From a virus, in IMG/VR virus record IMGVR_UViG_3300031452_000005: DNA of 64,000 nt. One strand, given 5' to 3'. The notes below the pieces were generated by a model, which saw nothing but the letters and a program-made list of their open reading frames with translations, searched no databases and was not told where the DNA came from. Both the position numbers and the translations under genes were made by a program. Below, in pieces: positions 28,636-46,674 of the stretch (the first letter of the stretch is position 1; each line of letters starts with the position of its first letter).

Positions 28636-28691
28636 CCCTGTATCTCTATCCGTATGTATGTCTAATCACATTGCCCCCTTGGAGGTTCCCC

Positions 28692-29330
28692 ATGCCCAAA
28701 TCCGCGCCCGGCGATAAGGTCGCCATCGACCACGCCACGACGGCCAGCGCCGTCGTCACCCCCGCGTCCGCCCTTCCCTCAACGGATGGGACGCCCGTCC
28801 TCGTCGCCCTCTACCACGGCGACGGGCGTTCCCTGTTTGTGCCGGAGGACCAGGCCGACACCTGGATACGCGAGGGCTTCACCCGCGAACGCCACGACAT
28901 CGGCGAGTTGTCCGGCCAGACGGCGCTCTTGTTCGACAGCGCCAAGGGCGCCGTCGCCGCCTATGCCGACGAGGCATCCAAGAACGCCACGCTCACGAAA
29001 GGCGACACCTCGAATATGTATGTGGCGGAGCACGCCATGGCCGACCTCGTGGAGACGTGGGGTCGCCTACATCGCGCCATCCACGCACAGAAAGGCGTCG
29101 CGCAGGGCGAGGCGGTCGCGGTGACAGACCATGCGACCGGGCAATCCGTGCAGGTGGACCCCCACCAGCATGACCTGTACGCGACTGGCCCCACCGAGGC
29201 GTACACCGGCACGGGCAACCCATACCAGAAGCCCGCCGAGGTGACGCAAGCGCACATCAAAGAGCAAATAGCAGCGGGGCGCGACCCTATGGAGCAGCAT
29301 CCCGCCACCGTAGCGGCGCGCGGCAAATAG
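28692..29330 (+). CDS. hypothetical late protein
   Basis: GGAGG RBS; 212 aa. Confidence 0.55.
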   Translation: MPKSAPGDKVAIDHATTASAVVTPASALPSTDGTPVLVALYHGDGRSLFVPEDQADTWIREGFTRERHDIGELSGQTALLFDSAKGAVAAYADEASKNATLTKGDTSNMYVAEHAMADLVETWGRLHRAIHAQKGVAQGEAVAVTDHATGQSVQVDPHQHDLYATGPTEAYTGTGNPYQKPAEVTQAHIKEQIAAGRDPMEQHPATVAARGK

Positions 29331-30029
29331 ATGACACAGGGCGCGCACGCCACACTGGCCGCGCATGATACGACGACAGACAGAGGGCAACACACGATGA
29401 CCACGATGACATCCAGCGTTTTGTACGAACACGCCGACCTGGGGCGCATCTACGCGCCCGTCGCCCTGACGCGCGCCCTCTCGCTGCCGGGGCGGCCCGC
29501 GCACACGCCGCCAGCCGGTGAGTACGGCGTCTGCGTCGCCGTCCAGAAGCGCCCCGTCTATGACGAGGCGGGCGTCCTACGCAAGATGGCGATGATCTGG
29601 CACAGTGTCACCCACAACGAGCGCGTCAATCAGGGCGCGCTCCGGCAGGATGTGGCCGTGTTCCAGAGCACCGCCATGGCCTTCACGACCATCGCCCTCG
29701 CCAGCGCCACACTCACCAAGACGGCCACCGACCTCTCATTGGGGAGCGCGACGGCGGCCGTCACGACCAACGAGTTCACGACGCTGGGCCTGGCCCGCGC
29801 CGTGGGCACGCTCGGCACGTACACGGCGCCCACGGCGCTGGGTGGACAGTTTTCCCAACCCCTATCAAAAACATTTACGGCGACCGGAAACGCCACCGTG
29901 TACGGGAGCGGCCTGTTCGATAGCGTGACCGTGGCGTCGAGTAGCCAATATTGCGAAGATAATTTCTCCAGCACCGCAGTCATGGTGAATGCCGATTCTT
30001 TGACCGCGACATGGACAATCCAAAATTGA
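29331..30029 (+). CDS. minor virion protein
   Basis: C-terminal SGLFDS....MVNADSLTATWTI beta-sandwich pattern seen in phage minor tail proteins. Confidence 0.55.
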   Translation: MTQGAHATLAAHDTTTDRGQHTMTTMTSSVLYEHADLGRIYAPVALTRALSLPGRPAHTPPAGEYGVCVAVQKRPVYDEAGVLRKMAMIWHSVTHNERVNQGALRQDVAVFQSTAMAFTTIALASATLTKTATDLSLGSATAAVTTNEFTTLGLARAVGTLGTYTAPTALGGQFSQPLSKTFTATGNATVYGSGLFDSVTVASSSQYCEDNFSSTAVMVNADSLTATWTIQN

Positions 30030-30048
30030 GTCTCGCCATCTGCTTGAT

Positions 30049-30789
30049 TCAAGGCTGCTTCCATGCGCGGCGCGCCAGCACGTTACACACCTGGGCCTCG
30101 GATAGGCCGTAGCGCTCCATGAGCGTTTTGCTATCAAGGTCACTGGCGCGCATCTCCTCAGCGATAGCGTAGTTGATCTTGGCAACGGCACCGCGTTGGA
30201 TGTTACGCGTGTGTGTGACGGGTTCGAGATGGTCAGGGCGCACACAATCACGCCGACGGCAGAGGTGATCCAATTCATATCCGTCCGCAATGGGGCCAAA
30301 CCTTTCCTCGTAAAACACGCGATGGGCCAGGCTTCCACGTTTGCCGTCGGCGCTGGTATATGATCCGTAGCCATCACTCTGCTTGCCGCGTCGCCAGATC
30401 CAGCACGGCGTGTCGTATCCGCAATCCGTGACGATATACAGCGCGCCCGTATATTTCACGGCTTGATGTCCGGGGCGATAGCGACGATGGTGTCCGATTG
30501 CATACCCCGAGAGGGGTACGCTCTTAGTCGCAACGGCCGTTTGGCCCCCGCATCCACACATGCATATCCCAGACGGATTAGGGTCTTCCACGCCGATAAG
30601 CAGTTGCATGTAACGCGCACGCGTACTGTGCTTAGGCATAAATCGACAAGGCTTGCCCTTGACAGACCTATCCCTTGTGTTCGTCGATGTAGCGATAGGC
30701 GTGACGCCCCCACACCCGCATTGACATAACCCCTCTGGAATACACGTCCCGCTGTCGTCGCCGTTAACCCTATCGTTCGCTTGCTCCAT
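30049..30789 (-). CDS. HNH homing endonuclease with two N-terminal CxCGCG zinc-binding repeats
   Basis: GLCQCGCG and GICMCGCG; CWIW...GYG...LAHRVFY...ELDHLCRRRDCVRPDHLEPVTHTRN. Confidence 0.88.
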   Translation of the reverse strand: MEQANDRVNGDDSGTCIPEGLCQCGCGGVTPIATSTNTRDRSVKGKPCRFMPKHSTRARYMQLLIGVEDPNPSGICMCGCGGQTAVATKSVPLSGYAIGHHRRYRPGHQAVKYTGALYIVTDCGYDTPCWIWRRGKQSDGYGSYTSADGKRGSLAHRVFYEERFGPIADGYELDHLCRRRDCVRPDHLEPVTHTRNIQRGAVAKINYAIAEEMRASDLDSKTLMERYGLSEAQVCNVLARRAWKQP

Positions 30790-31040
30790 CTTCGTATGCC
30801 TCGCACGCATAGAATAAGGGCCATTCGGACGGCAACGGTGCGAGCGCCGCCATCCAGGAATGACCCCATCATGTAGTGTATCCGACCGCCCATTACCCTC
30901 GCACGGCTTTGGTGGTCGCACCTACATTATACCACATCTACCGTTGAAAATAGCATGATAGACTTGCACTAAATAGCCCCATCAGGGCCTATCCGTCGCC
31001 AATTGTCGCCGCGCGCTGTCTCGGGGAGGGGAGGTCGAGC

Positions 31041-34000
31041 GTGGCTGTATCCCGCATCCAAGGCGTGGCCGCGGCGCTCGGCGCGACGGCCACCACGATT
31101 TCGGCGACGTTGCCCGCCGCGCCCACGGCGGGCAACCTCCTCCTGTTTTCATTGGAAGTCAAGAGCGGCACGCTCACGCCGACGACCCCTGCGGGGCTGA
31201 CCCTGGAAAAAAGCGTCGCCAATGGCACGATTGCGTCGGGCTATCTTTATTCGCGCATCGTGCAGGCCGGCGATAGCGCGACATGGACTCTGGGCAATCT
31301 CGCGTCCGCCGCCTATATGGGACTCGCTATCACGGAGTTCAGCGGGCAGGCAAGCGGCACGGCGTGGAATAATGCGCTGGCGACAGCTTCGGGTAGTAAT
31401 GCGATTGAACAGTGCGCCACTATCACGCCAACCGTCAACAACTGTCTGATCCACTGCGACTTTCAAGAAAACAGCTCGGATGCCTTTAGCGCAGCGGCGG
31501 CTCCCTGGACGCAGGGCTACCAATACGTGACCACGGTGAGCGCGAGCTGTTCCCTGGATGCGCAGTACCAGACGCAGGCGACGGCGGCGGCCATTACAAA
31601 CAGCGTGAACGTCGGCGCCACGCACAGTTACCAGGCGTTCATCGTCGCCATCGCCCCCGCGACCGCCACGGCCTACACGCGCGGGGTGATGTCGTCCGTC
31701 GTGTCATCACCCGCCGGGGCGCGCGCCGCGACCACCGCACGATCCACCACCGCATCCGTGTCCGCGCTCCCGACGGCGGTGCGGCAGGCCACGACGGCGC
31801 GCGCCACCACGGTAGCCACCGCCACGACGGCGACGGCGGCGCAGGCCCATACCTACGGGCGCGCGACGACCACCGCGACCGGAGCCACGATACCCGCGCC
31901 CGCACGCCTCTACGCGCCGCAGCGGCGCGTAGACGCGTCGGTCTCGCCCACGATGACCACAAGCCGCACGGCGACAACGGGACGCCCCACGGCGATCTCC
32001 GTGGCGCACACAGCGGCGCTTGCGGTCGTTCGCCTATCTACGCGTGCGTCCTCCGTCTCCCTGTCGGTGGTCGCTTCAACGGTGCGCGCCGTCGTCACGG
32101 GCCGGGCGTCCGCGCTGTCCATCCTCACGGGGAGCACGGCGACAGTGGCGCGCGCCTACAATCGCGCCCCGTCGAGCGCGGTCACCGCGTCCTCAACCGT
32201 TAGCCGCACGGCAACCGCGACACGCACGGGGACGCTCTCCGTCACGGCGATGCCCCAAGCGACGCGCGGGATCACGGCGGCGCGCGCGATGTCCGCGACC
32301 ATCAGCGCCGCCGTCGCGGCGGCCCGCGCCTCCTTATCGAGTCGTGCAACGTCCACAACGACACCTGCGACGACGCGCGCCAACGCGGCCCGTTCTTTCG
32401 CCCGATCCCCGCTCTCGACCGTCGCGGCAACCGGCGCGACCACGCGCCTCTACGCAGCGGCGCGGACGCATACAACCGCTATCGGCGTCACAGCGACGGC
32501 AGCGCGCCAGGCGACGGCGGCACGTCAGGCGGCGGCGGCTATCCTGTCCGCGCCGACGGTGGGCATCGGCAAGACCTTCGTGCGCGCGGACTCAGCGTTC
32601 GCGCAGATCACCGCGACGGCGACGCGCCTATCTGGACTGTTCGCGCGCGCCCTCTCCTCCGCGACGGCAGCGGCGACGCACGCGACGCGCGCCGCGACGG
32701 CGGCGAGACAGGGGACAGCGACCGTCGCCGCGACCGTGACGACGACCCGCGCGGTCGTCGTCACGCGTCCTCTGACGACGACAACGGTGATCACACCCAC
32801 TGTCCTCTCGACGCGCTCTTACCCGCGCACATCCGTGTCCACCACAGCGGTCACGACCACGACAAGCGCGACGCACGCCGCCTCACGCCTCACGACCGTA
32901 TCCATCGCGTTCGTCGGGGCGACACAGCGAACCGCCCTCGTGGTGCGTGCGCCAGTCATGTCCATCTCCACCACGACACAAGGGGCGCGCGCAGGCATTC
33001 AGGCACGCGCCGGCGCCCTCTCGGTCGCGGTGAACCCGACAAGCGCACGCTCCCTGACCGTCGCCCGCCCCGCGACCACGACGGTCGTGGCAACGGCAGG
33101 CGCGGCGGTCATGCGCGCCTATGCGCGTGCCCCGTTCGCGTCTGTCACGCCGACGACGACCGTCATGGGGGCAACGGTGCGCGTCCGTGCTGTATCTGTC
33201 TCAACTATTATCTCAGCGGTAGCGACGCGCATCGGCGCGTATCCTCGTGCTGCGTCCATCTCTCTTGCATCGACCATCACGCAGGGGCGACTATCCACCT
33301 CGACGCGCGCCCTGCTCACAGCCGCCTCGTCGTCGGCCTTCGTCTCGACCGGCAATAACCCCGTGCGCGGGGCGACGGTCGCGGTCGCGGTCGCGGTCGC
33401 GGCGGCGCGTACGCTCGTGCGGACGATCCCTGTGGTGTCACAGATCGCGGCATCCATTGCCACGTCCCGTGTCGAAGCCTTCGTGCGGGGCGCTGGGAGC
33501 GCCACACCATCGTCGCCTCTGGCGACGCGGCAGACAAGCGCGGGCCGGTCGGCGTCGGTCGTGGTCGCGGTCACGACCATAGTGGCGCGACTAATGGTCA
33601 TCGGGCGGTCTATCACCACGTCCGTCGCGCCGTCATCGTCGGTCGGCTCCTCGGTCCAGCACACCGCCGGGTCGTTGTCCCGCGTCGCCTCGGCGGCGGT
33701 CGCGCCCCTCTCCCGCGCCGTCCGCGCCGTTGTGGCCGCACGGTCGGCGTCCTCCTCATCAGCGGCGTCTGTCTCCGTCACGGCGACGCGCTTGACCCGT
33801 CCGCGCGGCGCCGCCACGTCCGTCGTGTCGCGGACAGGTTTATCGTCCGCGACGCAACGCGTGCGCGCGGCTCTCGCAGGGACGGCGCCAGGGAGTACGA
33901 CGACGCGCGTCGCCGCGGCCATACGACCCACCACCACGGCCACGGGGAACGCTGCGACAACGGTGCCTCACTCATCGTTCAGCCGCGTGTCGGCAGACGC

Positions 34001-34733
34001 TCGCGTTCCCACGACAACCGTGGCGCGGGCGTCCACCTTTGTGCGCGGCTCGACGTTCATCCAGTCCATGACCGCCGGCATCGCGGGCGCCCGCGCGGTG
34101 GCGCGGGCCTTGGGGTCGGCCATCGGCGCGCTGGCGCGGGCGATGGGTCTCGCGTCCCATGCCGCACGCATCCGCGCCACGTTCGTCGTGCCGCGGCGTT
34201 CCCTGACGTTCGTGGCCCCGGCGCGTCTCGCCGCTTTCGTCATCCCGGCGCGTCCCGTCAGCTTCGCGGCCCCCACGCGCGGGGCAGCGCTCATATTCGC
34301 GGTCCAAGCGCGACCGTTGTCGTTCGTCGTCGCGCCGGGGCCGGGCGCGACGGGGGTTATCGCCGGGGAGGGAGAGAGCATGCGCGCGACATTCCAGACC
34401 GTGGACGGCACATCGTTCCTCAACCCGCTTGACCAGGCCGTGCCGTTCACCGGCGACATCTCAGCCATCCTGCCGGGCGGGAGTGGCGTCGGCGCGACCG
34501 TGGCCGTCTACGCGGTCACAGGCATCCCCCAGGACGGGAGCGCGTCGTTCGACGCCACTCCCGTGGTGCAGGGCACGCCGACGCTCGCCTCCACGGGCAT
34601 CCTGTCCCTGAGCGTGGGGAACGGCGCGACCGTCCCGCAGGCGCCGGGCGTCACGTACCGGCTACGCCTGCGGGTCGTCTCCGGCGCGACGGTGCAAGAG
34701 GTGACGGTTGATCTGCCGTGCGTCGCGGATTAA
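31041..34733 (+). CDS. large Thr/Ala/Ser/Arg repeat protein, probable virion fibre
   Basis: N- and C-terminal globular regions flanking a 20-residue R-x13-R-x5 repeat tract; GGGGAGG RBS. Confidence 0.6.
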   Translation: MAVSRIQGVAAALGATATTISATLPAAPTAGNLLLFSLEVKSGTLTPTTPAGLTLEKSVANGTIASGYLYSRIVQAGDSATWTLGNLASAAYMGLAITEFSGQASGTAWNNALATASGSNAIEQCATITPTVNNCLIHCDFQENSSDAFSAAAAPWTQGYQYVTTVSASCSLDAQYQTQATAAAITNSVNVGATHSYQAFIVAIAPATATAYTRGVMSSVVSSPAGARAATTARSTTASVSALPTAVRQATTARATTVATATTATAAQAHTYGRATTTATGATIPAPARLYAPQRRVDASVSPTMTTSRTATTGRPTAISVAHTAALAVVRLSTRASSVSLSVVASTVRAVVTGRASALSILTGSTATVARAYNRAPSSAVTASSTVSRTATATRTGTLSVTAMPQATRGITAARAMSATISAAVAAARASLSSRATSTTTPATTRANAARSFARSPLSTVAATGATTRLYAAARTHTTAIGVTATAARQATAARQAAAAILSAPTVGIGKTFVRADSAFAQITATATRLSGLFARALSSATAAATHATRAATAARQGTATVAATVTTTRAVVVTRPLTTTTVITPTVLSTRSYPRTSVSTTAVTTTTSATHAASRLTTVSIAFVGATQRTALVVRAPVMSISTTTQGARAGIQARAGALSVAVNPTSARSLTVARPATTTVVATAGAAVMRAYARAPFASVTPTTTVMGATVRVRAVSVSTIISAVATRIGAYPRAASISLASTITQGRLSTSTRALLTAASSSAFVSTGNNPVRGATVAVAVAVAAARTLVRTIPVVSQIAASIATSRVEAFVRGAGSATPSSPLATRQTSAGRSASVVVAVTTIVARLMVIGRSITTSVAPSSSVGSSVQHTAGSLSRVASAAVAPLSRAVRAVVAARSASSSSAASVSVTATRLTRPRGAATSVVSRTGLSSATQRVRAALAGTAPGSTTTRVAAAIRPTTTATGNAATTVPHSSFSRVSADARVPTTTVARASTFVRGSTFIQSMTAGIAGARAVARALGSAIGALARAMGLASHAARIRATFVVPRRSLTFVAPARLAAFVIPARPVSFAAPTRGAALIFAVQARPLSFVVAPGPGATGVIAGEGESMRATFQTVDGTSFLNPLDQAVPFTGDISAILPGGSGVGATVAVYAVTGIPQDGSASFDATPVVQGTPTLASTGILSLSVGNGATVPQAPGVTYRLRLRVVSGATVQEVTVDLPCVAD

Positions 34734-34841
34734 ACACGCCACTCCGCGACGCCTGTCTCTATCCAGGTGACGCCCGTCGCCGTCGTCTGCCGCACCGCTT
34801 GTCCGCGTGTGCGGCCTTTTTGGATCTTTTTGAGGTGTCAC

Positions 34842-37800
34842 ATGCTGTCCACTCGCCGCGTCTTCATCGGGCGTCTTCTCCTCGTGTGTGTGCTCGTGCT
34901 CACGGCGTTCGGGGGAGGCGTGGTGGGCAGGATCACCAGCCGCACCAGCGCGCCTGTCGCCGCACCCGTTTCTGTCAGGACGACCGTGCCTGTCGGCGCG
35001 CAGCCGCCGCAGGCGGGCACGGGGCTCTATCCCGATCACCAGCCACCCACCGGGGGGGCGGCGGAGCGGGGACGCCAGGGGCAAGGACCGGGGAGGCAAC
35101 CGGAGCGAGGACGCCAGGGGCAGCGGACGGGGCGTGGACCCCGTCTGGCCGCGACGAGTAGTGCCGCCATCACGGGCCTCCATGTCGCGGGCAATCAGAT
35201 CGTCAACGGCAACAATACGCCCGTTGTGCTGCGCGGCGTCGACCGTATGGGCAGTGAGTACTCCTGTGTCGGCAACAGTAATCTGGGCTACGGCGTGTTT
35301 GACACCAACGCGACGAGCGTCGGCCCGGTCGATCAATCCAGCGTGAATGCGATGCTGGCCTGGAACATCAATGCGGTGCGCCTGCCGCTCAACGAGGACT
35401 GCTGGCTGGGGATCAATCTCCCCAGCGGCAATACCTACCAGGGCACGGCCTACCAGACGGCCATTGAAAACTACGTCTCGCTGCTCAACAGCAACGGGAT
35501 CGCCGTTATCCTCGACCTCCAGTGGGGTCAGCCGGGCACGATTATCGCTAATCAAACCGCGCCGGTGGGCAACGGGTCAGGTCAGGAGCCAATGCCCGAC
35601 GCCGACCACGCTGGCGCGTTCTGGACCTCCGTCGCCACGGCGTTCAAGAGCAATACGTCCGTCCTTTTCGACGCCTTCAACGAGCCGTTCCCCGACAACA
35701 ATACGGTCAACAGTACGGCGGCCTGGACCTGCTGGAGGGACGGCGGCAATTGTAGCACGGCGGGCATCACGTACACGGTCGCGGGCATGCAGACGCTCGT
35801 GACGGACATTCGCAACGCCGGCGCGACGACGCAGCCGATCATGCTCGGCGGCATCAACTATAGCAACTCGTTCCAGCAGTGGCTCACCTATAAGCCGACC
35901 GACCCCAATAACGGCCTCGTGGCGTCGTGGCACTCCTACAACTTCAACCCGTGCAACACGCAGACCTGTTGGGACCAATACATCGCCCCGGTCGCGCAGA
36001 GCGTGCCGGTGCTGGCCGGGGAGATCGGCGAGAACGACTGCGCCACCGGGTATATCAATCCGCTGATGACCTACCTCGACGGCAAGGGCATCGGCTATCT
36101 CGGCTGGTCCTGGTCCGCCTATAACTGCGGGAGCACGCCCTCGCTGCTCGCGGGCATCAGCGGCACGACCTATACCGCCTCGGCGTACGGAACAGGCTTG
36201 CAGGCGCACCTGGTGGCGCTGGCGAACCCCACGGCCACGCCGGGGCCGAGCCCCACGCCCGCGCCGCTCACCGCCGGCACGGTCTATGACGGTACCTATG
36301 AAAACGGGTGGAGTGATTACAGTTATGGCTTTACCCACACCGTCACCTCCACATCCCCCGTGTATGGGGGCGACGCCCAGGCGATTCAGGGGACCTTCGT
36401 TGCGGGCGGCTACGGCGCGGTCAAGTTTCACCAGGTCAGCTTCACGCCAACCGGCTACGGCACGCTGCATTTTGCTGTGCACATGGACGGCACGACTGGC
36501 GACCAGTTCACCGTCAACGCCAACGACAGCACGGGCGCGGCCCTGAGCGCTGGGGTCTCCATCACGCCGACACTCAACGCGTGGACCGCGTTTGACATCC
36601 CCGTGTCCAGCCTGGATAGCACGCCCACGGCGATGACCGACTTCTCCATCCATGAGTATAGCGGCAAAGGCGCGACAATCTCCGTGGACGACGTGCGCTT
36701 TGTCGCGGCGACCACGACGGCGGCCACGGCGACGCCGCTGGCGACGAATACACCCGCGGCGACGGCAACGCCCGCAGCCACGGCAACGACTGGACCGAGC
36801 GCGACCACCGGCCCGGCCGCGACGGCTGGACCGAGCGCCACGCCCGCACCCGGCAGCGTCGCCGTGACGATCAACACCGGGACAACGCTCGCCGTCATCC
36901 CGGCGACAGGCTATGGGATGAATGACGCGGTGTGGGATTCCCATGCGACCGATGCCGCCGCGAACAGCGCGATGCGGCAACTCAACATGGGCATCATGCG
37001 GATGCCGGGCGGCTCCACCGCCGACGACTATCACTGGGCCAACAACACCGTTGACAACGGCCCGAACTATCCCGGCCACCAGGTCAGCACGACGAGCAAC
37101 CCGGCCGGGACACCGTACTACACCCTGGCGCAAACGGCGCTCAACGCGGGCATGCAGCCATTGATGACGTTCAACTACGGCACCAACGCCACGCTGACCG
37201 GTCCCAACACGAGCACCGATGACGCCAACTGGGTGCAGGACGCCAACGTGACCCGGCATTTGGGCATCAAATACTGGGAGCAAGGAAATGAGAACTTCGG
37301 GGGTGGTTATTACGACTATTCCTACTTCGAGTCAAACCTGAACAATAACAGGACCCCGCAACAGTACGCCGCCGACCTCAACACGAACGCGGCGGCGATG
37401 AAGGCGGTTGACCCCTCTATTCTGATCGGCGCGTCGCTGGAGGTTCCCGGCTACTACCCGTGGGGCGCGGGGACCAACCAGTACCTTACCGGCGGCAACG
37501 GCGCGGCCAACCCCGGCGTCGGACCAACCGGATTAGACTGGAACAATACGGTCATCGCCAATGCCTGCAACAACATCGGCTTCATCGACGCGCACTGGTA
37601 TCCGATCAACCAGACCACGGGCACCGACGCGCAACTCCTCGGGTCTGTCCATGGCTACGACCCTGCCAGTCAGAACAAGGGTGGCGCCACGCCTTCGTCG
37701 TTCCAAGGGCCGGCCGGCATGATGACCGAACTCAAGAATGAGTTGAACACCTATTGCCCCAGTCGGGCCAGTCAGATCAAGGTTTTCATAGGCGAGTCCA

Positions 37801-39578
37801 ACTCCAATGAGGACAGTCCGCAGCGGGTGTCGATTGTGGACGGCCTGTTCGCCGCCGACCAATTCCCGACCTGGCTAGAGAATGGCGCGGCCAACGTGTC
37901 CTGGTGGGACCTGCACAACGGATCCAACGCCAATCACCCCGCGCCCACGGGCGTCACGGTTAGTGCGGGCAACTACTCCGACCTGGGCACGCTGTCGGCG
38001 GGTAGTTCAGGTGAACCGACTGCGAACACACCGTTTCCGTCGTGGTACGGGATGCGTCTGGACGCGCTAATGGCGTCGCCGGGCGATAGTTTGGTCCAGG
38101 CCACAAGCCCCCTCGCGTCGCTCGTGATCCATGCGGCCAAACGCGGCGACGGGACGATGGGTATCCTCTTGATTAATGAAGATCCGTCCAACAGCCATAC
38201 CGCCGCGCTCAACATCGCGGGCTTTACGCCGGTGGGGACGGCCGCGACCTACTCCTACGGGCAGGCCCAGGCGTCCACGGCCAACTATGCGGCGGGCATT
38301 GTCACCGGGACGGCCCCCGCCGTGCAGGGCATGAATGTCACCGTCGCTCCCTACACGATGGAGACGCTAGTGCTGCAACCGAGCGGCGGCGCGAGTACGC
38401 CAACGCCGACGCCGACGACCGCGCCCGCGCCGAGCAATCAGGTCCCGCTCGCTGGGGTCTACAACTTCCCCGGCATCGTCGCGGATGGAACGACGTTTAC
38501 AACTGCGAACAGCGTTGATGGCTGCTGCTCCAACCTCTCGTCAAACGCGCTAGCGACGGCTGGCTACAGCGGAAATAGCACGCTGACGACCGGCGGCAAT
38601 ACCTACACGACCGGCCCGACGACGGGGAACGACGTGATCCGCATGGCGGGGCAGACGATCAATCTGGGCGGACAGATGACGGGCACATCCCTCTCCATCA
38701 TCGGCTTCGGGGTGACGGGCACGCAAACGGGGAACGTGACCGTGCAGTACACCAACGGCACGACGGGCTCCTTCCCGCTCGGGTTGCCGGACTGGATACA
38801 GGGAGGCACGACCAATCAGGTCGTGCAGAGCGCGTACCGCGTCAACACCAACGGCACGACCGACCCCAACAACAAGCCGACCTTGTACAACGCGCAGGTG
38901 GGACCACTAACCGCTGGTATTTCAAGCATCACGCTCCCCACGAACAACAATATGTATATGGTGGCGGCATCGGTGATCGGGGGCGCGCCGACCGCGACCA
39001 GCACCGCGACCAGTACGCCGCCCGCGCTGCCCGCCGCCACGAATACGGCTGCGCCCATCCCGACGGCGACCGCCGCCACTACCTCGTTACCGACCGCGCC
39101 ACCCATCCCGACCGCGCCACCCATCCCGACCGCGACGCCCATCCCGACCGCGACCAGTACGCCGCCCGCGCTGCCCGCCGCCACGAATACGGCTGCGCCC
39201 ATCCCGACGGCGACACCCGGCGGGCCGGCGGCCACGCCGACGCCCTACAGTGTAACGCTGGTCTTCGTCCCCTCCACCGTGGCGCGGGGGGCGACAGGGG
39301 CGACACTGGTCATCGCGGCAACCATCCGCTCCAGCGCTTTCCTGGCGCGTCCCCTCGTCACCATCACCCTTGCCACGGGAGCGACGACCGTTGCGACGCT
39401 GACGCCGTATCGCGCGCCGTTGTTCCTACGGGCGGGCCGTCCCACCTTCGTCGTGTTCACCTGGGCCGTTCCATCAACCGCCCCATCGGGTGGTTATAGC
39501 GTCGTCGCGCACCTCGCCGCGCGCGGGGGCGGGTCCCTCGCCGACTCCACGCCGCAACCGTTCACGCTCGGCGCGTGA
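34842..39578 (+). CDS. signal-anchored multidomain glycoside hydrolase: GH5 + CBM-like + second clan GH-A domain (GH51/GH79-like) + accessory beta domains
   Basis: GH5 motifs VRLPLNEDCW, FNEP, WHSY, GEIG, GWSW; second domain RMPGGSTAD, YWEQGNE, DAHWYP, IGESN; Pro/Thr linkers; hydrophobic N-terminus. Confidence 0.85.
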   Translation: MLSTRRVFIGRLLLVCVLVLTAFGGGVVGRITSRTSAPVAAPVSVRTTVPVGAQPPQAGTGLYPDHQPPTGGAAERGRQGQGPGRQPERGRQGQRTGRGPRLAATSSAAITGLHVAGNQIVNGNNTPVVLRGVDRMGSEYSCVGNSNLGYGVFDTNATSVGPVDQSSVNAMLAWNINAVRLPLNEDCWLGINLPSGNTYQGTAYQTAIENYVSLLNSNGIAVILDLQWGQPGTIIANQTAPVGNGSGQEPMPDADHAGAFWTSVATAFKSNTSVLFDAFNEPFPDNNTVNSTAAWTCWRDGGNCSTAGITYTVAGMQTLVTDIRNAGATTQPIMLGGINYSNSFQQWLTYKPTDPNNGLVASWHSYNFNPCNTQTCWDQYIAPVAQSVPVLAGEIGENDCATGYINPLMTYLDGKGIGYLGWSWSAYNCGSTPSLLAGISGTTYTASAYGTGLQAHLVALANPTATPGPSPTPAPLTAGTVYDGTYENGWSDYSYGFTHTVTSTSPVYGGDAQAIQGTFVAGGYGAVKFHQVSFTPTGYGTLHFAVHMDGTTGDQFTVNANDSTGAALSAGVSITPTLNAWTAFDIPVSSLDSTPTAMTDFSIHEYSGKGATISVDDVRFVAATTTAATATPLATNTPAATATPAATATTGPSATTGPAATAGPSATPAPGSVAVTINTGTTLAVIPATGYGMNDAVWDSHATDAAANSAMRQLNMGIMRMPGGSTADDYHWANNTVDNGPNYPGHQVSTTSNPAGTPYYTLAQTALNAGMQPLMTFNYGTNATLTGPNTSTDDANWVQDANVTRHLGIKYWEQGNENFGGGYYDYSYFESNLNNNRTPQQYAADLNTNAAAMKAVDPSILIGASLEVPGYYPWGAGTNQYLTGGNGAANPGVGPTGLDWNNTVIANACNNIGFIDAHWYPINQTTGTDAQLLGSVHGYDPASQNKGGATPSSFQGPAGMMTELKNELNTYCPSRASQIKVFIGESNSNEDSPQRVSIVDGLFAADQFPTWLENGAANVSWWDLHNGSNANHPAPTGVTVSAGNYSDLGTLSAGSSGEPTANTPFPSWYGMRLDALMASPGDSLVQATSPLASLVIHAAKRGDGTMGILLINEDPSNSHTAALNIAGFTPVGTAATYSYGQAQASTANYAAGIVTGTAPAVQGMNVTVAPYTMETLVLQPSGGASTPTPTPTTAPAPSNQVPLAGVYNFPGIVADGTTFTTANSVDGCCSNLSSNALATAGYSGNSTLTTGGNTYTTGPTTGNDVIRMAGQTINLGGQMTGTSLSIIGFGVTGTQTGNVTVQYTNGTTGSFPLGLPDWIQGGTTNQVVQSAYRVNTNGTTDPNNKPTLYNAQVGPLTAGISSITLPTNNNMYMVAASVIGGAPTATSTATSTPPALPAATNTAAPIPTATAATTSLPTAPPIPTAPPIPTATPIPTATSTPPALPAATNTAAPIPTATPGGPAATPTPYSVTLVFVPSTVARGATGATLVIAATIRSSAFLARPLVTITLATGATTVATLTPYRAPLFLRAGRPTFVVFTWAVPSTAPSGGYSVVAHLAARGGGSLADSTPQPFTLGA

Positions 39579-39617
39579 CGCGCCAGGACCAAGAGGGAAA
39601 GGGGGGCGCATAGCGCC

Positions 39618-40181
39618 ATGGCACTCATCTTCAGGACGGTGTTCGCCCCGTCGTTGGTTGGCGTGGCCTACGCGCCAGCGTTGCCTGCGTGGCTCTCGTT
39701 CGCGAGCACGCTCGACGGGACGGCCATCACGCCGCAACCGACGATCATCAACTTGACCAACGGCCAGTTCTCGCTCTCCTACGACACGACGACGGTTGGC
39801 GGTGACATCGGCGCCGGGGTCCTCGACCTGTCCGCGCTGCCTGGCATTGCCACGTCCGATCGCCACATCGCGGTCGACTTCTCGACAGGGGACAAGAATA
39901 ACTACACGCTGAGTGGGGAGGAATACGCCACGCCGTTCCCCGCGGCGGTGCGCGCGGCGTTGCCCGAGTTCGACAGCCTCGACGGCGCGCTCACGCTCCG
40001 GGTCGCGCTCCAACTGGTCGTAGCGTTCATTACCGGCAACTACACCGTGCAGCAGAACGCGCCGTTGCCCAATCAGCAGACCGTCCAGTACACGAGGGCG
40101 GACCTGGTGACGCCGCTCTCGACCACCGTCACCAGTTTCGACCCCGTGAATGGGAGTCCCACGCGGCGCGTCCGACAATGA
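39618..40181 (+). CDS. probable virion protein
   Basis: C-terminal LTLRVALQLVVAFITG...D..NG..TR pattern recalled from phage structural proteins. Confidence 0.45.
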   Translation: MALIFRTVFAPSLVGVAYAPALPAWLSFASTLDGTAITPQPTIINLTNGQFSLSYDTTTVGGDIGAGVLDLSALPGIATSDRHIAVDFSTGDKNNYTLSGEEYATPFPAAVRAALPEFDSLDGALTLRVALQLVVAFITGNYTVQQNAPLPNQQTVQYTRADLVTPLSTTVTSFDPVNGSPTRRVRQ

Positions 40182-40196
40182 GAGAGGGGATATCGC

Positions 40197-41075
40197 ATGC
40201 AGTTCATCACCAACCTATCCATATTTTTGCGCGACCCGCTGGCCGGCGCCTTGGTCGTGGCAATCGTCGTATCGCTGGTCAAACCATGGATCGAGGTGTC
40301 CATCAAACCTAACAACCCGCGCCACGACCCCCTCATCCGCCTACTCGCCATCCTTTTCGGGATACTGCTCTATCTGGGCGTGAGCCTGGCGACGAACGTG
40401 TCCTGGGGCGCGGCGCTTGTCGTGCTCGCACTCCTCAATGGCGGCGTCATCGGACTGATGAGCATCGCGACCTACCACCTTGTGTCTGGTTCGTGGATAC
40501 CGACGCCGGACGGGCAAAACACGGCGGCATCGAGCACGACCTCGCCGACGACCAGCGGCCCTGCCCCGGCGCTTCTCGCGCGCGGTGTCCCCGCGCCGTC
40601 GGTGGATATCGACGGGATCATGGCTCAGGCCACGGATGCCGCGACAGCGACGGCCCACGACGTGGCGACCGACACCGCCACCATCACCGCGCGCGATGTC
40701 GCCGCGTCCACGGCAACCAATGTCGTGGAGATGGGCTTGCAGGATGTGGCCAACCAGGTGTTCGCCATGGTGCGCACGGCCCTGAGCGCGTCTGCAACGC
40801 CGTTGACCGCCCCGACTACACACACCGTCTCCGCACGCGTATCCGTCGAAAGAACGCCCATCGTGGATACAGCGCCCCCCGCGCCAACCGTGCGCGTGTC
40901 GCGCGGGAAAGTGACCCCGGTCGCGCCACCCGCCACACTAAGCGCGTCACCGCTCCCTGCCGACGCGCTCATCACGTCCGTCGCAACGGTGCCCCTGTCG
41001 GCCACCCCGCCGACCGACAAGACTATCCTCATCGAGGATCCGGGCCTGCCGCCCACCGACCCCGCGCACGACTAG
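40197..41075 (+). CDS. holin-like protein with low-complexity Thr/Ala/Pro C-terminus
   Basis: Three hydrophobic helices in the first 100 aa ending GLMSIATYHLV. Confidence 0.6.
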   Translation: MQFITNLSIFLRDPLAGALVVAIVVSLVKPWIEVSIKPNNPRHDPLIRLLAILFGILLYLGVSLATNVSWGAALVVLALLNGGVIGLMSIATYHLVSGSWIPTPDGQNTAASSTTSPTTSGPAPALLARGVPAPSVDIDGIMAQATDAATATAHDVATDTATITARDVAASTATNVVEMGLQDVANQVFAMVRTALSASATPLTAPTTHTVSARVSVERTPIVDTAPPAPTVRVSRGKVTPVAPPATLSASPLPADALITSVATVPLSATPPTDKTILIEDPGLPPTDPAHD

Positions 41076-41079
41076 CGCG

Positions 41080-41328
41080 ATGGGCGATTTGCTCTATTTC
41101 ACGCCGACGACCATCGTCCCCGCGACCACGACACAGGCCGCCACGGTCGTGTCCGTCGCCGCGACGATGACCGCCGAGGGGATGCCTGTCTGGTCCATCG
41201 TCGCCGAACGCGACACGGCCCTGACCGCCGATGACCGCGTGGCGGTAGAGTACGCGCGCCGTCCCGGCAAACCGTGCCCCGTCGCGGGCGGCGACACCAT
41301 CCGCATCGCCGTCGCCTCCGTGGTCTGA
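41080..41328 (+). CDS. hypothetical protein
   Basis: 82-aa ORF packed 4 nt after upstream stop. Confidence 0.45.
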   Translation: MGDLLYFTPTTIVPATTTQAATVVSVAATMTAEGMPVWSIVAERDTALTADDRVAVEYARRPGKPCPVAGGDTIRIAVASVV

Positions 41329-41403
41329 ACGGCCACAGCCCCAACGCCCGTGGCCCATACGCCCGTGGCCCGCACGCCCATCGCGTCCAGGAGAGATTAA
41401 ATT

Positions 41404-44400
41404 ATGGCAGGGACCACGACGACCCCCACTTCGACGACGACCACGATACCGGCGTCCTATCTCGTCGGCGGCACGAATACGCCGAACGACGGACGGACGG
41501 TCCCGGCCGTCGTACTGATGGACCCGACGACCGGGTTGCCGCTGGTCGCCCAACCCGTCACCGTGGCGGCGTTGCCCCTACCCACCGGGGCGGCGCAGGA
41601 CCTCACGCTGACTGACGGCCAGCAGAAGGCACAGATCACGACGCTCCCCGCCGATGGGGCAACCTTCGCCACCCTCTCGGCGGCGTACATCACCCCCACG
41701 GTGGGTGGACCCCCTGATAGCGCCCCCCCCGCGAGCACCCTTGTCCTCCCCCTGGGCAACGGCCAATCCAGTTGGGACGCATCCATCGGCGGGACCATCG
41801 CACCCTCACTGGTCGCGCCCACCGCCGCCCCCGCGCCTGCGCTGTCCTATGGAACGGGCAATACGGTCGCGGCAGGCGTCTACGGGGTGCAGGTGTCCTA
41901 CATTAACAGCACCGGCGAAACGCTGCCCAGTCCCGCGCTGGCGCTGACGGTGCCCCCCCCCACTCCGGCGCCCGCGACGGCCCCGACCGTGGCCGCACCG
42001 ACGCCAGGCGGCCTGGTCGATGCCGGCGCGCATGTCTATGCCGTGACCGTCCTCACCCCCATTGGCGAGACCACGGCAGGCACGGTTTCCACCGCCGTGA
42101 CGGCCTACGCGTCCATCGCGGCCCCCGCGACGGCCCCGACCGTGGCCGCACCGACGCCAGGCGGCCTGGTCGATGCCGGCGCGCATGTCTATGCCGTGAC
42201 GCTGGTGAACCCTGCGGGCGAGACCACGGCAGGGACCGTCTCCACCGCCGTGACGGCCTACGCGTCCATCGCGGCCCCCACGACCGCCCCGACCGTGGGC
42301 GCGGCCATGCCAGGCGGCGCGGTGGACGCGGGCGCGCACGTCTATGCCGCCACGTTCACCAACCCCGCTGGTGAAACGACGCTCAGCACAGTCTCGGCCA
42401 CCGTGACGACGTTCGCCCCCCTCACGACGCCTGCCCCCGCGCCCACCGTGGCGACGGCCACGACGGGTGGCGCGGGGTTGGCGCCGGCCACCGCCTACAC
42501 CTACGCCATCACGGTTGAAAACAGCATCGGGGAAACCACCGTTGGCCCCGCCTCGACCAGTGTGACGACGGGGGCGGGCGCGACCAACTCCGTCACGCTC
42601 TCGGCCATTCCGACCGCGCCCGTGGGGAGCAGCGCGCGCAGGATTTACCGCGCCACGGCCGGCGGTCTCTACGGGTTGATCGCGATCATCGCCGACGACA
42701 CGACGACGTCCTACACCGACACGGGCGCCGTCCCGCAGGGGAACACGCCGCCAACCGTGAACACCACCAACGCACAGACTGTCCCCCTCGCGGCCCTGCC
42801 GACCGGCCCCGCCGGCACGACCGCGCGCAAACTGTACCGCTCGAAAGCGGGCACGACGACGCCCCTCTATCTGGTGGCAACCCTCGCCGATAATACGACC
42901 GTCACCTATACCGATACGATGGCGGACGCGGCGCTGGGCGTCGTGTCGCCCGTAGCGAACACGACCGAGGCGCAGACCGTGCCGCTGACGGCCATCCCGA
43001 CCGGCGCGGCTGGCACGACCGCGCGCAAGGTGTATCGGTCGAAAGCAGGCACCACCACACCGCTGTACCTGGTGGCGACCCTCACCGACAACACAACCGC
43101 TGTGTATACGGACGCCACGGCGGACGCCGCGCTGGGTGTCGTGTCGCCGGTCGCAAATACGACCGAGGCGCAGACGGTGGCGCTCACGGCCATCCCTAGC
43201 GGCCCCGCCGGCACAACCGGGCGCAAGCTGTACCGCTCCAAGGTCGGAACCACCACGCCCCTCTATCTGGTAGCGACCCTCGCCGATAATACGACCGTCA
43301 CCTATACCGACACGACGGCAGACGCCTCCTTGGGCGGGGCATCACCGTCCGTGAACAGTAGCGGCGCAAACACCCTCACCCTCCCCTCACCCCCGCCGTC
43401 GAGCAACGCGACGGGATGGTACGCCTATGTGACGCAGCCGGGGGGCGTGACCTACACGGGGCAGCAGGCGGCGGGATCACCCACCGCTATCGGGTCGCCG
43501 CTGACGTTGACGGCGCCCCCGACGACGACCGGCGCGGCGCCGCTCACGGTCGCGACCACGGTCGTGACGAGTGTGGCGTTCGACGGTACGCTCGACCCCA
43601 ACCCGGCGACAACGGCGTGGTTCGCCGTCCCTGCCATCCCGCTGGGTATGGCATCGGCTTCTCCGACGTTCACCCTGACCCCCGCGCCCCATGCGACGGC
43701 GACGGTGCATGGCGGCGCGGGTGGATACGCGCAGGTGCGCATCAGGGTGGTGACCTACAACGGAACGGACCAGGTGGCGGTCACGCTACGGGCGTCGGCG
43801 GCGTCGCCCATCGTGCGGACGGTCGCGGTCGCCACGACGCCGCCCGACCTCGCGGCCACGGCCGCGTTGGCGGCATCTCAGGCGTCCCCCACGTCCCCCA
43901 CAGCGGCTATTCCTAGCAGCGCGCTGGCCTTGCCGCTGGGGTCGGGACAGGCCAGTTGGGATGCTTACGTCGGCGGCGCCATCGCGCCCCCGATGGTCGC
44001 GCCCGTCGCCGCGCCCGCGCCTGCCGTGACCTACGTCGTCGGCGGCACGGTCGCGCCCGGTGTCTATGGGTTGGAAGTATCCTACATCAACACGACCGGT
44101 GAGACCACGCCCTCGCCTGCGACCTCCATCACGGTGCCCGCCCCCGTGCCCGCGCCGACGACGGCCCCGACCGTGGGCGCAGCGACAGCAAATGGCGCGG
44201 TGGACGCGGGCACGCACGTCTATGCGGCGACACTGGTTAACGCCATCGGCGAGACCACGGCAGGGACCGTCTCCACCGCCGCGACGGCCTACGCATCCAT
44301 CCCCGCGCCGACGACCGCCCCGACCGTGGGCGCGGCCATGCCAGGCGGCGCGGTGGACGCGGGCGCGCACGTCTATGCCGCCACGCTGGTCAATGCGGCG

Positions 44401-46458
44401 GGCGAAACGCCGAGTGGAACCGTCTCAGCCGCCGTGACGACCATCGCCGCGCTCGCCGCCACCGTGCCGCCCGTGCCGACGACCGCCACCACGGGCGGCA
44501 CGGTCGGGGCCGCGCTCGCCGCCCCCGCCGCCCCCGCGCCGACGACCGCCACCACGGGAGGCACGGTGGCGGCGGGCACCTATCCCGTGGCCGTCACCTA
44601 CGTCAACCCCGCCGGCGAAACGGTCGGCTCGGCTAACGGCAGCGTGACAACCACGGGCACGACCTCAACCATTACGGTCCCGGCCCCGGCGGCGAGCGGC
44701 AACGCCACCGCCTACTACGCCTACGTGGGCGCGGCGGGCGGCGCGGCGGGGTCCGGCACGCGGCAACAGGTGGCGGGATCGCCGACCGCGCTGGGGACCG
44801 CCTACACCTTGACCGCGCCTCCGACCACGACCGGCGCCGCTATCCCGACCACGACCACCGCGTATCTGCCCTATGCCATTGAGGTGACCTACGTCAACGC
44901 GGCGGGTGAAACGGTGGCATCGGCATCCGCCTCAATCACCCCGACCACGACCACCAGTACGATCACCGTGCCCGCGCCCGCCGCCAGCGGCAACGCCACG
45001 GGCTACTATGCCTATGTGACGCAGGCCAATGGCACGACGTATACGCGGCAACAGGCCGCCGGGAGTCCGACCGCGCTCGGCACGGCGTTCACGTTGACCG
45101 CGCCCCCGACCACGACGGGCGCGGCGCCACCAACCGTGAACACCACGAACACGCAGACGGTGGCGCTCACGGCCATTCCCACCGGCCCCGCCGCGACCAC
45201 CGCGCGCAAGGTGTATCGGTCGAAAGCAGGCACCACCACACCGCTGTACCTGGTGGCGACCCTCACCGACAACACAACCGCTGTGTACACCGATACGATG
45301 GCCGACGCGGCGCTGGGCGCGGCGTCACCTGCGGCGAACACGACCGAGGCGCAGACGGTGGCGCTCTCAGCCATCCCGACCGGCGCGGCTGGCACGACCG
45401 CGCGCAAGGTCTACCGCTCCAAAGCGGGGACCACCACACCCCTTTATCTGTTGGCGACGCTCGCCAACAACACGACCACGGTGTATACCGACGCGACGGC
45501 GGACGCCGCACTGGGTGTCGTGTCGCCGGCGCTCAACAGTAGCGGCGCGAACACCCTCACCCTTCCGTCACCCCCGCCGTCGAGCAACGCCACGGGCTAC
45601 TACGTGTACACCACGCAGCCGGGGGGCGTGACGTACACGCGACAGCAGGCGGCGGGCAGTCCCACTGCCATCGGCACGGCGTACGTGCTGGGGACCCCGC
45701 CGATCACGACGGGGGCAGGGCCGCTCGCGGCGGCGACGAGCGTGGCGACGAGCGTGGCCTTCGACGCCACGCTGGACCCCAACCCGCTGACGACGGCGTG
45801 GTTCCCGGTGAACCCGACGCAACTGGGCGGGCCGCAGGACGGCCCGGTGGCGGCGCTGACGCTCGCCGGGGCGCCGGTGGCGGTCCATGGGGGCGCGGCA
45901 GGCTACGCGCAGGTGCGGGTCCGCGTCCAAAGTTACAACGGCACGGACAGCCTCGCGACGATGCTGCGCGCGTCGGCGGCGTCGCCCTCGGTGATCAAGG
46001 CAACCATCAGCCCGCTCACCTCGGTCGATGTTGTCACGATTGGCAAGGTGTACACCCCAATTTACACGGAGTCCGCGCCCTCCGCGCGTCTCGCCACGGG
46101 CGGCACGACGGTCTACCAGCAGGTCTTCGTGCCCATCGCGTTCCCGGCGGGGTTCAACCCGACCGAACTGGGCCTCTCGGGCGTGCTCGGCCCGTTGACC
46201 TTTGCCACTAATGGGACGCCGGCGGGTCAGGTCCAACTCAACCTGGAGCACCAGGACGCCGGTGGGCGCTGGACGCAAATCTGGAACTCGGGGCCGATCA
46301 CCGCGAACGCGGGTGTCGCCAGCTACCCATCAACGAGTGTTGGCGCCGGTCTAACCAACAACGTCTGCTTCACCAACACGTTGCGGTGGAACTATGTGTT
46401 CACCGGCACATTCACCGCCGCATCCCTGACGGAGCAAGTGTCCCTCTGGGGCAAGTGA
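41404..46458 (+). CDS. giant repeat virion/accessory protein with nested FN3/Ig-like domains
   Basis: GGAGAG RBS; runs of A-halves (PTV..GG.V.AG.Y..T....GETT) followed by runs of B-halves (V.L.AIP.G....RK.YRS..Y.VATL.DNTT..YTD). Confidence 0.7.
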   Translation: MAGTTTTPTSTTTTIPASYLVGGTNTPNDGRTVPAVVLMDPTTGLPLVAQPVTVAALPLPTGAAQDLTLTDGQQKAQITTLPADGATFATLSAAYITPTVGGPPDSAPPASTLVLPLGNGQSSWDASIGGTIAPSLVAPTAAPAPALSYGTGNTVAAGVYGVQVSYINSTGETLPSPALALTVPPPTPAPATAPTVAAPTPGGLVDAGAHVYAVTVLTPIGETTAGTVSTAVTAYASIAAPATAPTVAAPTPGGLVDAGAHVYAVTLVNPAGETTAGTVSTAVTAYASIAAPTTAPTVGAAMPGGAVDAGAHVYAATFTNPAGETTLSTVSATVTTFAPLTTPAPAPTVATATTGGAGLAPATAYTYAITVENSIGETTVGPASTSVTTGAGATNSVTLSAIPTAPVGSSARRIYRATAGGLYGLIAIIADDTTTSYTDTGAVPQGNTPPTVNTTNAQTVPLAALPTGPAGTTARKLYRSKAGTTTPLYLVATLADNTTVTYTDTMADAALGVVSPVANTTEAQTVPLTAIPTGAAGTTARKVYRSKAGTTTPLYLVATLTDNTTAVYTDATADAALGVVSPVANTTEAQTVALTAIPSGPAGTTGRKLYRSKVGTTTPLYLVATLADNTTVTYTDTTADASLGGASPSVNSSGANTLTLPSPPPSSNATGWYAYVTQPGGVTYTGQQAAGSPTAIGSPLTLTAPPTTTGAAPLTVATTVVTSVAFDGTLDPNPATTAWFAVPAIPLGMASASPTFTLTPAPHATATVHGGAGGYAQVRIRVVTYNGTDQVAVTLRASAASPIVRTVAVATTPPDLAATAALAASQASPTSPTAAIPSSALALPLGSGQASWDAYVGGAIAPPMVAPVAAPAPAVTYVVGGTVAPGVYGLEVSYINTTGETTPSPATSITVPAPVPAPTTAPTVGAATANGAVDAGTHVYAATLVNAIGETTAGTVSTAATAYASIPAPTTAPTVGAAMPGGAVDAGAHVYAATLVNAAGETPSGTVSAAVTTIAALAATVPPVPTTATTGGTVGAALAAPAAPAPTTATTGGTVAAGTYPVAVTYVNPAGETVGSANGSVTTTGTTSTITVPAPAASGNATAYYAYVGAAGGAAGSGTRQQVAGSPTALGTAYTLTAPPTTTGAAIPTTTTAYLPYAIEVTYVNAAGETVASASASITPTTTTSTITVPAPAASGNATGYYAYVTQANGTTYTRQQAAGSPTALGTAFTLTAPPTTTGAAPPTVNTTNTQTVALTAIPTGPAATTARKVYRSKAGTTTPLYLVATLTDNTTAVYTDTMADAALGAASPAANTTEAQTVALSAIPTGAAGTTARKVYRSKAGTTTPLYLLATLANNTTTVYTDATADAALGVVSPALNSSGANTLTLPSPPPSSNATGYYVYTTQPGGVTYTRQQAAGSPTAIGTAYVLGTPPITTGAGPLAAATSVATSVAFDATLDPNPLTTAWFPVNPTQLGGPQDGPVAALTLAGAPVAVHGGAAGYAQVRVRVQSYNGTDSLATMLRASAASPSVIKATISPLTSVDVVTIGKVYTPIYTESAPSARLATGGTTVYQQVFVPIAFPAGFNPTELGLSGVLGPLTFATNGTPAGQVQLNLEHQDAGGRWTQIWNSGPITANAGVASYPSTSVGAGLTNNVCFTNTLRWNYVFTGTFTAASLTEQVSLWGK

Positions 46459-46518
46459 CCAAAGACCGTCGCGCCGAGGCACGCGCCTCGGCGGGGCTGG
46501 TCCATGCCGTCCAGGTGT

Positions 46519-46564: not shown

Positions 46565-46674
46565 CATCGACGCGCGCGGCCACACTACCGCCGCCGTGAC
46601 AGGCGATAGCCCCGACCGCGCGACAGGCCCGACGACCCACCGCATATCCAACGTCTAACGGAACAGGCGCGACA

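Follow-up and report, generated by a model that had tools for sequence, protein, structure and literature searches.

The putative glycanase gene and its product

The 64,000-nucleotide (nt) stretch of viral DNA held as IMG/VR record IMGVR_UViG_3300031452_000005 (the window) belongs to an uncultured phage and encodes, at 34842-39578, a 1,578-amino acid (aa) protein, P0001, with a putative N-terminal export signal, two predicted catalytic barrels and three beta-sandwich modules. A sequence-only reading had described this product as a bifunctional glycosidase laid out like secreted bacterial cellulases and hemicellulases rather than tailspikes, and the layout was borne out, as the domains, the catalytic Glu pairs and the anchor are all present. 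The open reading frame (ORF) starts at ATG 34842, four nt downstream of a Shine-Dalgarno-like GAGGTG (34832-34837) read from the sequence, and stops at 39576-39578; the alternative longer start, GTG 34767, is without a Shine-Dalgarno-like site. The gene, its parts and the hairpin ahead of it described below are on the plus strand.

The GH5 catalytic domain (residues 111-470; 35172-36251) matches Pfam PF00150 (Cellulase) over residues 163-427, well above the family threshold (E 4.2e-27; 95.8 bits against a cut-off of 23.5). Its acid/base, E281, lies in an NEP motif (residues 280-282) and its nucleophile, E394, in a GEIG motif (residues 393-396), and the Glu codons begin at 35682 and 36021, exactly where they had been placed from the letters alone. 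R180, N280, E281, H364, Y366, E394 and W424 are all present and are 96-100% conserved among 100 aligned relatives. Six Cys columns are conserved in this GH5 subfamily, with those at 142, 187, 297, 371 and 376 conserved at 95-100%; since such conservation suggests disulfides, it fits an extracytoplasmic enzyme. The representative library holds 3492 relatives of the domain, 993 of them below 1e-30, at a best identity of 61%. The nearest solved structures are the GH5 mannanases 3wsu and 1bqc, but these match at E 4e-8 only, too distantly to assign a substrate.

Residues 670-1185 (36849-38396) are predicted to form a second clan GH-A (beta/alpha)8 barrel with a C-terminal beta-sandwich (AlphaFold model with a predicted local distance difference test score, pLDDT, of 83 and a predicted template modelling score, pTM, of 0.88). 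In Foldseek searches GH51 enzymes scored best, followed by GH44 and GH79 (E to 5e-29, template modelling score (TM) 0.65-0.72, identity 12-18%), with TM of 0.67-0.72 to the GH51 structures 3s2c and 3ug3. The barrel, the sandwich and the Glu pair were all found, E817 in a GNE motif (residues 815-817) and E985 in a GESN motif (residues 984-987), both at least 90% conserved among 36 homologues; model, fold matches and conservation together uphold the second barrel proposed from the sequence. GH51 (3s2c, 2vrk), GH44 (CelM2, Cel44A) and GH79 enzymes have the same barrel and sandwich, with Glu residues after strand 4 (GNE) and strand 7, but they share only 12-18% identity with P0001 and no Pfam model of these families matches it. 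No Pfam match was obtained for the second barrel even at E 5, the GH51 family model included, and the phmmer match to 2vrk was partial (E 6.7e-5 over 120 residues only). Since GH44 and GH79 score almost like GH51, the family of this barrel cannot be named, and it is referred to here as GH51-like. Many of its 72 cellular homologues carry CBM2, CBM3 or ricin domains. The term bifunctional is therefore justified in the sense of two intact retaining clan GH-A active sites, the activity itself being predicted from sequence and model.

The first of the three beta-sandwich modules, at residues 476-625 (36267-36716), resembles carbohydrate-binding modules (CBMs). The atlas gave look-alikes for it by language-model features only (CBM30, CBM4_9, CBM27 and CIA30; scores 0.93-0.96), and no Pfam family matched; the CBM-like domain of the sequence-only reading is thus backed by its look-alikes only and is a lead rather than proof, as is its assignment as a galactose-binding-type CBM. 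Where that reading had listed one further beta domain, two were found. Residues 1195-1385 (38424-38996; model pLDDT >85) form a beta-sandwich accessory module with AziU3/U2 as best fold match (target TM 0.78-0.80), and modules of this type serve as a repeat unit of secreted enzymes in cells: cellular GH3 proteins, S53 peptidases, PQQ-propeller proteins and GH5 proteins of the same subfamily contain between one and six of them. The stretch 39237-39578 (residues 1466-1578 and the stop codon; model pLDDT 76-92) encodes a C-terminal Ig/Fn3-like domain, for which the nearest folds are of a generic kind, namely the Fn3/Ig domains found in GH3 enzymes, the carbohydrate-binding domains of Wzt, and RbmA. 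The non-catalytic parts of P0001 thus have the folds of generic carbohydrate-binding or Ig-like sandwiches.

At the N-terminus, residues 1-33 (34842-34940) comprise the basic n-region MLSTRR and a hydrophobic segment, the sole one in P0001 with a 19-residue Kyte-Doolittle value above 1.6 (maximum 2.31), in keeping with the basic and hydrophobic start noted earlier. This region is best read as a signal anchor or uncleaved signal peptide; cleavage is doubtful because Pro comes after the small-residue sites. An N-terminal export signal of the kind that marks Sec-exported or signal-arrest-release (SAR) endolysins is thus predicted, by hydropathy only. A tether of residues 34-110 (34941-35171) follows, its translation being of low complexity and rich in Pro, Gly, Arg and Gln; its DNA contains a 32-nt imperfect direct repeat, D3 (35062-35093 and 35101-35132). 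Linkers with a Pro/Thr/Ala fraction of 0.5-0.8, expected from the sequence-only reading, lie at residues 626-669 and 1386-1465. The second of these (38997-39236) is encoded by repetitive DNA, with a 73-nt direct repeat (97%) at 39003-39075 and 39147-39219 and an 18-nt tandem array at 39090-39152; the stretch 39003-39219 is a likely hot spot for recombination and for assembly errors.

Phage origin and reshuffled cassettes in related phages

The glycanase gene is phage DNA and not a chimera. Five public rock metagenome runs contain 89-99% of the sampled words of 33500-40500, and in two of the five one contig covers 29075-39032 and another 39185-42000, with zero differences to the window. Run X5, one not marked as a potential source of the assembly, yielded contigs of 34219-35655 and 39185-40733 that span the 5′ and 3′ borders of the gene. 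Contig depths are even, and the sole contig break (39032-39185) falls inside the repetitive last linker. A chimera is excluded because contigs span both borders, and the gene belongs to the phage also because the related phage contigs L001 and L016 carry it and because its GC content at third codon positions (0.83) matches that of tail-region genes (0.82-0.88; the endonuclease genes have 0.47-0.61). The same bridged borders, syntenic relatives and tail-like composition agree with the earlier statement that this is not host DNA at a prophage edge, and the chimeric junction that the sequence-only reading had named as a way to overturn its proposal was looked for and is contradicted by error-free contigs from several rock metagenomes. 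Contigs of several runs show many short-sided joints, for example of 34691 to 38990, which would skip most of the gene, and of 37226 to 39978, which would skip its 3′ half; the matching sides measure only 20-29 nt and may be due to chance in GC-rich repeats instead of marking deletion variants. Run X6 contains only a diverged relative (region 29000-47000; for example 35169-35811), and since its contigs are 90-95% identical to the window, a second strain or species of this phage is present in another sample.

L001 is a 36.9-kb JGI contig syntenic with the window. The two share genes at 64-95% identity (the PAS gene, two small genes, the long upstream ORF, and the 187-aa, membrane-protein and 1684-aa genes), and at the position of the glycanase gene L001 has genes for two enzymes with export signals, P0004 (1840 aa) and P0138 (1044 aa). 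P0004 is 81% identical to P0001 over the CBM-like block and the second barrel, its GH5 module being only 39% identical; it has extra CBM4_9 and sandwich modules, its C-terminus is about 35% identical to that of P0001, and the tether is not conserved in it. P0138 (L001:15624-18758) is encoded directly after the L001 GH5 gene and has an N-terminal anchor followed by a GHL15-like region, an atlas lead (0.91) for which neither Pfam nor PDB gave a match, together with a CBM-like domain (38% identical) and a C-terminal domain (63% identical) of the P0001 type. P0001 looks like a recombinant of the two L001 enzyme genes. A third related phage, L016 (1-13845), matches the window at 88-92% identity in its PAS and upstream genes (92% for the PAS gene) and, shortly after the PAS gene, encodes P0159, an anchored protein of 1857 aa that combines DUF4082 with a GH5 domain (51% identical) at its C-terminal end. 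An IS605 OrfB/TnpB-like gene lies just downstream of the L016 GH5 gene, and an OrfB gene is also found at the edge of L001.

Between close relatives, flanking genes are 77-95% identical while the GH5 module is only 39% identical. The phage lineage represented by the window, L001 and L016 always keeps a GH5 protein, predicted to be exported, and freely rebuilds it, and module turnover of this kind is typical of phage genes that face the host surface. A quick maximum-likelihood tree of 100 GH5 domains was star-like (18 of 97 branches starred) and gave no firm phage clade, P0001 grouping weakly (support 88) with proteins of L016 and of the phage-like contigs L010 and L015. In an approximately unbiased test P0001 and P0004 as one clade were not rejected (p 0.80), the constrained search giving a better tree than the free one. 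Given the star-like tree and this result, independent acquisition and fast divergence of the P0001 and P0004 GH5 modules both stand.

Members of the P0001 GH5 subfamily also occur in three unrelated phage-like contigs, where they are again predicted from sequence to bear N-terminal signals; this recurrence is new. L010 encodes an endolysin, an Erf-like protein and a primase-polymerase together with the GH5 protein P0009; L015 has P0007 in a tight operon with tailspike-like and SLT proteins; and L017 has P0005 with a large terminase, portal and head protease. A further contig, L019, is possibly phage-like. Signals, in the form of a signal peptide, an anchor or a lipobox-like sequence, were predicted in each of the seven phage proteins examined, namely P0001, P0004, P0138, P0159, P0009 (lipobox-like LTSC), P0007 and P0005. 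Within L010:10001-20984, three consecutive giant ORFs come after the lysis genes, encoding a 1647-aa GH5 protein with the lipobox signal, a 962-aa protein (faint Sortilin/BNR) and a 1047-aa Laminin_G_3 protein. Chloroflexota and Actinomycetota have homologues that are chromosomal and secreted. The one in L004, a chromosomal locus of a Chloroflexota metagenome-assembled genome (MAG), is 55-60% identical and neighbors a betaine transporter and EamA; L005 and L006 are homologues on large Actinomycetota MAG contigs; L012 lies inside a cluster for cell-wall and exopolysaccharide (EPS) synthesis, beside Mur ligase, Ddl and FemAB; and L013 is beside an AraC regulator and the binding protein of a sugar ABC transporter. 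Fusions are frequent among cellular relatives of both catalytic modules and include a GH5-CBM9-GH9 fusion, a fusion to GH10 and fusions to CBM2/CBM3.

In the window, baseplate J (21093-22286) and an SLT-domain tape-measure-like protein are encoded upstream of the glycanase gene, and the GH25 gene and homing endonuclease genes (HNH and GIY-YIG) downstream; an NlpC/P60-like protein and a lysis cluster with GH25, GH20-like and peptidase genes are also encoded. The phage is myovirus-like and probably lytic. No tRNAs were found in the window, nor were any sugar uptake or catabolic genes seen near the glycanase gene. The proposal that structural-type genes flank the gene on both sides found weak support: baseplate J and the tape measure lie farther upstream, but the adjacent products, of 1230 aa upstream and 187 aa downstream, match no family in PHROGs, Pfam or NCBIfam. 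The upstream ORF (31041-34733) has an ordinary N-terminal 200 aa and C-terminal 150 aa around a low-complexity middle of about 850 residues rich in Ala, Thr, Arg and Ser, and is 64-71% conserved relative to an 1826-aa ORF of L001. Two genes downstream of the glycanase gene, 40197-41075 encodes a 292-aa multi-pass membrane protein whose first 100 residues contain several hydrophobic helices and whose tail is rich in Pro, Thr and Ala; this protein has no family match, is 73% conserved in L001 and is possibly holin-like or a membrane-anchoring partner. In the lysis cluster, the 409-aa product of 56387-57616 has a strong N-terminal hydrophobic segment (hydropathy 2.87), giving the phage at least two candidate anchored hydrolases, this product and the glycanase. 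Between the 1230-aa gene and the glycanase gene, a GC-rich hairpin followed by two U-runs (34789-34832) is possibly a partial terminator. The fold of 34776-34832 has -20.8 kcal/mol (z -3.2), and none of 200 shuffles was as stable; the hairpin was not picked up by the consensus terminator scan and is not conserved in L001 as a hairpin with U-runs. Consensus promoter and terminator scans gave fewer sites than in shuffles.

Searches beyond these contigs returned little. Among cultured phages (INPHARED) there was no DNA match for 17000-37000 and no tblastn match for whole P0001 or for the 546-aa product of 5138-6778; the GH25 lysin had distant matches only, to phages of mixed hosts, and gives no host clue. 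IMG/VR searches with the GH5 module, the 187-aa neighbor and baseplate J brought up no relatives, and the second barrel had two weak matches only, on viral contigs of 288 and 345 kb. Scans of JGI metagenome contigs with the 187-aa neighbor, alone and as an alignment, gave nothing, the patterns missing even L001. Baseplate J was absent from three MAGs bearing GH5 homologues, nor did it turn up when 301 genomes per phylum were searched for the two phyla concerned. Among 600 genomes, no prophage relatives were seen.

Proposed role of P0001 in infection

Since the export signal is conserved in all seven phage proteins, the GH5 Cys residues are conserved and the architecture is that of secreted glycanases, P0001 is predicted to work outside the cytoplasm. 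The fast module turnover, the rock habitat and the neighborhood (tail-region genes, a membrane protein and no metabolic genes) favor a bacterial glycan as target and a benefit in release and spread. Further support comes from the cellular relative in a cell-wall and EPS cluster (L012), and from the second anchored hydrolase candidate of the lysis cluster and the membrane protein two genes downstream. Taken together, these data suggest, with about an even chance of being right, that P0001 is a Sec-exported, non-virion multi-modular glycanase that acts on an extracellular or envelope glycan and aids the release and spread of progeny; its export, timing, substrate and benefit are what we infer here. 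During infection the signal anchor would carry P0001 across the cytoplasmic membrane, where it may be held on its flexible tether of 80 residues or be released. The GH5 and GH51-like modules, both presumed to be retaining clan GH-A enzymes and the former to contain disulfides, would then hydrolyse glycan outside the cell, directed to it by the three beta-sandwich modules. The likeliest substrate would be host exopolysaccharide, a sheath or wall-associated glycan, or the matrix of the surrounding biofilm, and its clearance ahead of lysis and as the cell lyses would free progeny to leave and spread rather than be trapped. Several findings weigh against this proposal. Export is read from hydropathy only, the star-like GH5 tree sets no firm phage clade apart, and a distance of about 12 kb separates the gene from the main lysis cluster. 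The fusions of cellular relatives to CBM2/CBM3, GH9 with CBM9 and GH10, and the one relative beside a sugar-binding protein and AraC, form a nutritional signature, and the habitat label comes from runs that may themselves be the source of the assembly.

The nutritional signature is the core of another explanation, in which P0001 is an auxiliary metabolic gene (AMG) product that frees oligosaccharides from an environmental polysaccharide (a cellulose-like glucan, mannan, arabinan-decorated polymers or cyanobacterial EPS in rock) for uptake by the infected cell, fueling phage production. Its architecture and nearest relatives are those of secreted polysaccharide degraders (GH9 with CBM9, GH10, and CBM2, CBM3 or ricin domains on the second barrel), a cellular homologue adjoins AraC and a sugar-binding protein, and there are viral precedents. 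Soil viruses of Stordalen Mire encode a GH5 with proven endomannanase activity, published as an AMG for plant polymers and taken to show that enzymes which cut polysaccharides are carried by soil viruses (Emerson et al. 2018, PMC6786970). The viral genes on both sides of the P0001 gene and the lack of microbial metabolic genes also agree with what was asked of AMG-encoded carbohydrate-active enzymes (CAZymes) in that study, and the Stordalen Mire enzyme has, as P0001 does, intact catalytic residues and viral genes on both sides; by description only, P0001 is set apart from it by the second barrel, three sandwiches, conserved anchor, length of 1578 aa and rock habitat. About 5% of 64,678 prophage CAZymes carry signal peptides (PMC13507307); these are, like P0001, phage-borne and predicted to be actively secreted, although at the level of a catalogue and in prophages. 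Against a nutritional role stand the habitat, the only label found being rock metagenome, where plant polymers are scarce, and the absence, in the neighboring part of the window, of genes for taking up or breaking down sugars. Modules are also shuffled rapidly from one close relative to another, and the gene sits with those of the tail region and not with metabolic cargo; it is doubtful, too, that a diffusible or surface enzyme would pay off in a single lytic cycle. This explanation is accordingly considered unlikely, though a real contender. Of the two roles put forward in the sequence-only reading, degradation of plant polysaccharide thus fits the rock habitat poorly, and the depolymerase is favored, as an exported enzyme rather than a virion-borne one.

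A depolymerase on the baseplate or a fibre, digesting capsule or EPS at adsorption as a tailspike does, would suit a gene downstream of baseplate J and between long fibre-like ORFs, and it finds further encouragement in the L015 homologue in its operon with tailspike-like and SLT proteins and in a mosaic evolution typical of receptor-binding proteins. We regard it as improbable, since the N-terminus of P0001 is a conserved signal anchor with a disordered tether and not an adaptor domain, searches of PHROGs, Pfam and NCBIfam gave it no match to a family of tails, fibres or spikes, and the predicted fold is of TIM barrels of the monomer type, with long disordered Pro/Thr linkers between them, not trimeric beta-helices. 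The conserved Cys residues, too, suggest that P0001 folds outside the cytoplasm, the compartment in which virions are assembled. Slightly less probable still is an accessory lysis factor, an anchored enzyme that would complete lysis of a monoderm host by cutting secondary cell-wall polysaccharide outside the membrane, in the manner of mycobacteriophage LysB or of Sec-exported endolysins. Exported or SAR endolysins carry an N-terminal signal anchor comparable to that of P0001, another anchored hydrolase candidate lies in the lysis cluster and a membrane protein two genes downstream, the L010 homologue comes after an endolysin and two small ORFs, and the cellular relative L012 is beside Mur ligase, Ddl and FemAB. 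The lysis cluster, however, is 12 kb away and already supplied with GH25, GH20-like and peptidase genes, and known lysis proteins are built differently, without so large and CBM-rich an architecture. No peptidoglycan-cleaving domain was found in P0001, whose GH5 and GH51-like domains are not those of a muramidase, amidase or peptidase, and enzymes of these two kinds are not known to hydrolyse peptidoglycan.

PghP of phage phiNIT1 is a soluble, non-virion depolymerase and, in common with the GH32 enzymes of phages SP10 and phiNIT1 and with P0001 as proposed here, is not part of the particle and degrades a host extracellular polymer so that progeny reach new cells. The levan-acting GH32 enzymes of these Bacillus phages are soluble, non-virion, without signal peptides and released by lysis (PMC4595243), whereas P0001 has two catalytic modules and an export signal conserved in seven of seven phage proteins. 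Secreted multi-modular cellulases and hemicellulases (GH5, Pro/Thr linker, CBM and second GH), including the L004 protein, resemble P0001 in signal peptide, linkers and sandwiches, and the GH5 domains of L004 and P0001 start with the same AITGLHV(Q/A)GN motif; P0001 differs from them in being phage-encoded, conserved yet reshuffled among related phages and of tail-gene composition. Viral GH5 enzymes and phage CAZymes with signal peptides have already been published; what is new is the export-tagged, two-headed design, its mosaic cassette in one phage lineage and the recurrence across several others.

Whether the glycoside hydrolases of soil viruses are metabolic helpers or tools for viral entry and exit is an ongoing argument, and a global survey has argued that the majority of viral CAZymes act in core functions of the virus (bioRxiv 10.1101/2024.12.20.629349). 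The present locus offers a clean test case: phage-borne, with two intact predicted catalytic domains and a conserved predicted export signal, found in reshuffled versions in three related phages and with look-alikes in three unrelated phage-like contigs. If the substrate is cellulose, mannan or arabinan, there would be a strong case for actively secreted viral enzymes of carbon degradation; if it is an exopolysaccharide of the host or community, many carbon-cycling AMGs of soil viromes would need re-reading as factors of release and spread. The modules of P0001 may also serve as biofilm-degrading enzymes. A bolder and improbable extension is that the members of this GH5 subfamily with signal peptides form a phage-maintained class of exo-lysins, which many unrelated phages of soil and rock that infect monoderm hosts would export ahead of lysis so as to dissolve the EPS or sheath layer. 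Were this so, exo-lysins would constitute an additional, unnamed and compartment-specific step of release, with a logic comparable to that of LysB or spanins, and the hypervariable cassette of the window, L001 and L016 would track the diversity of host glycans.

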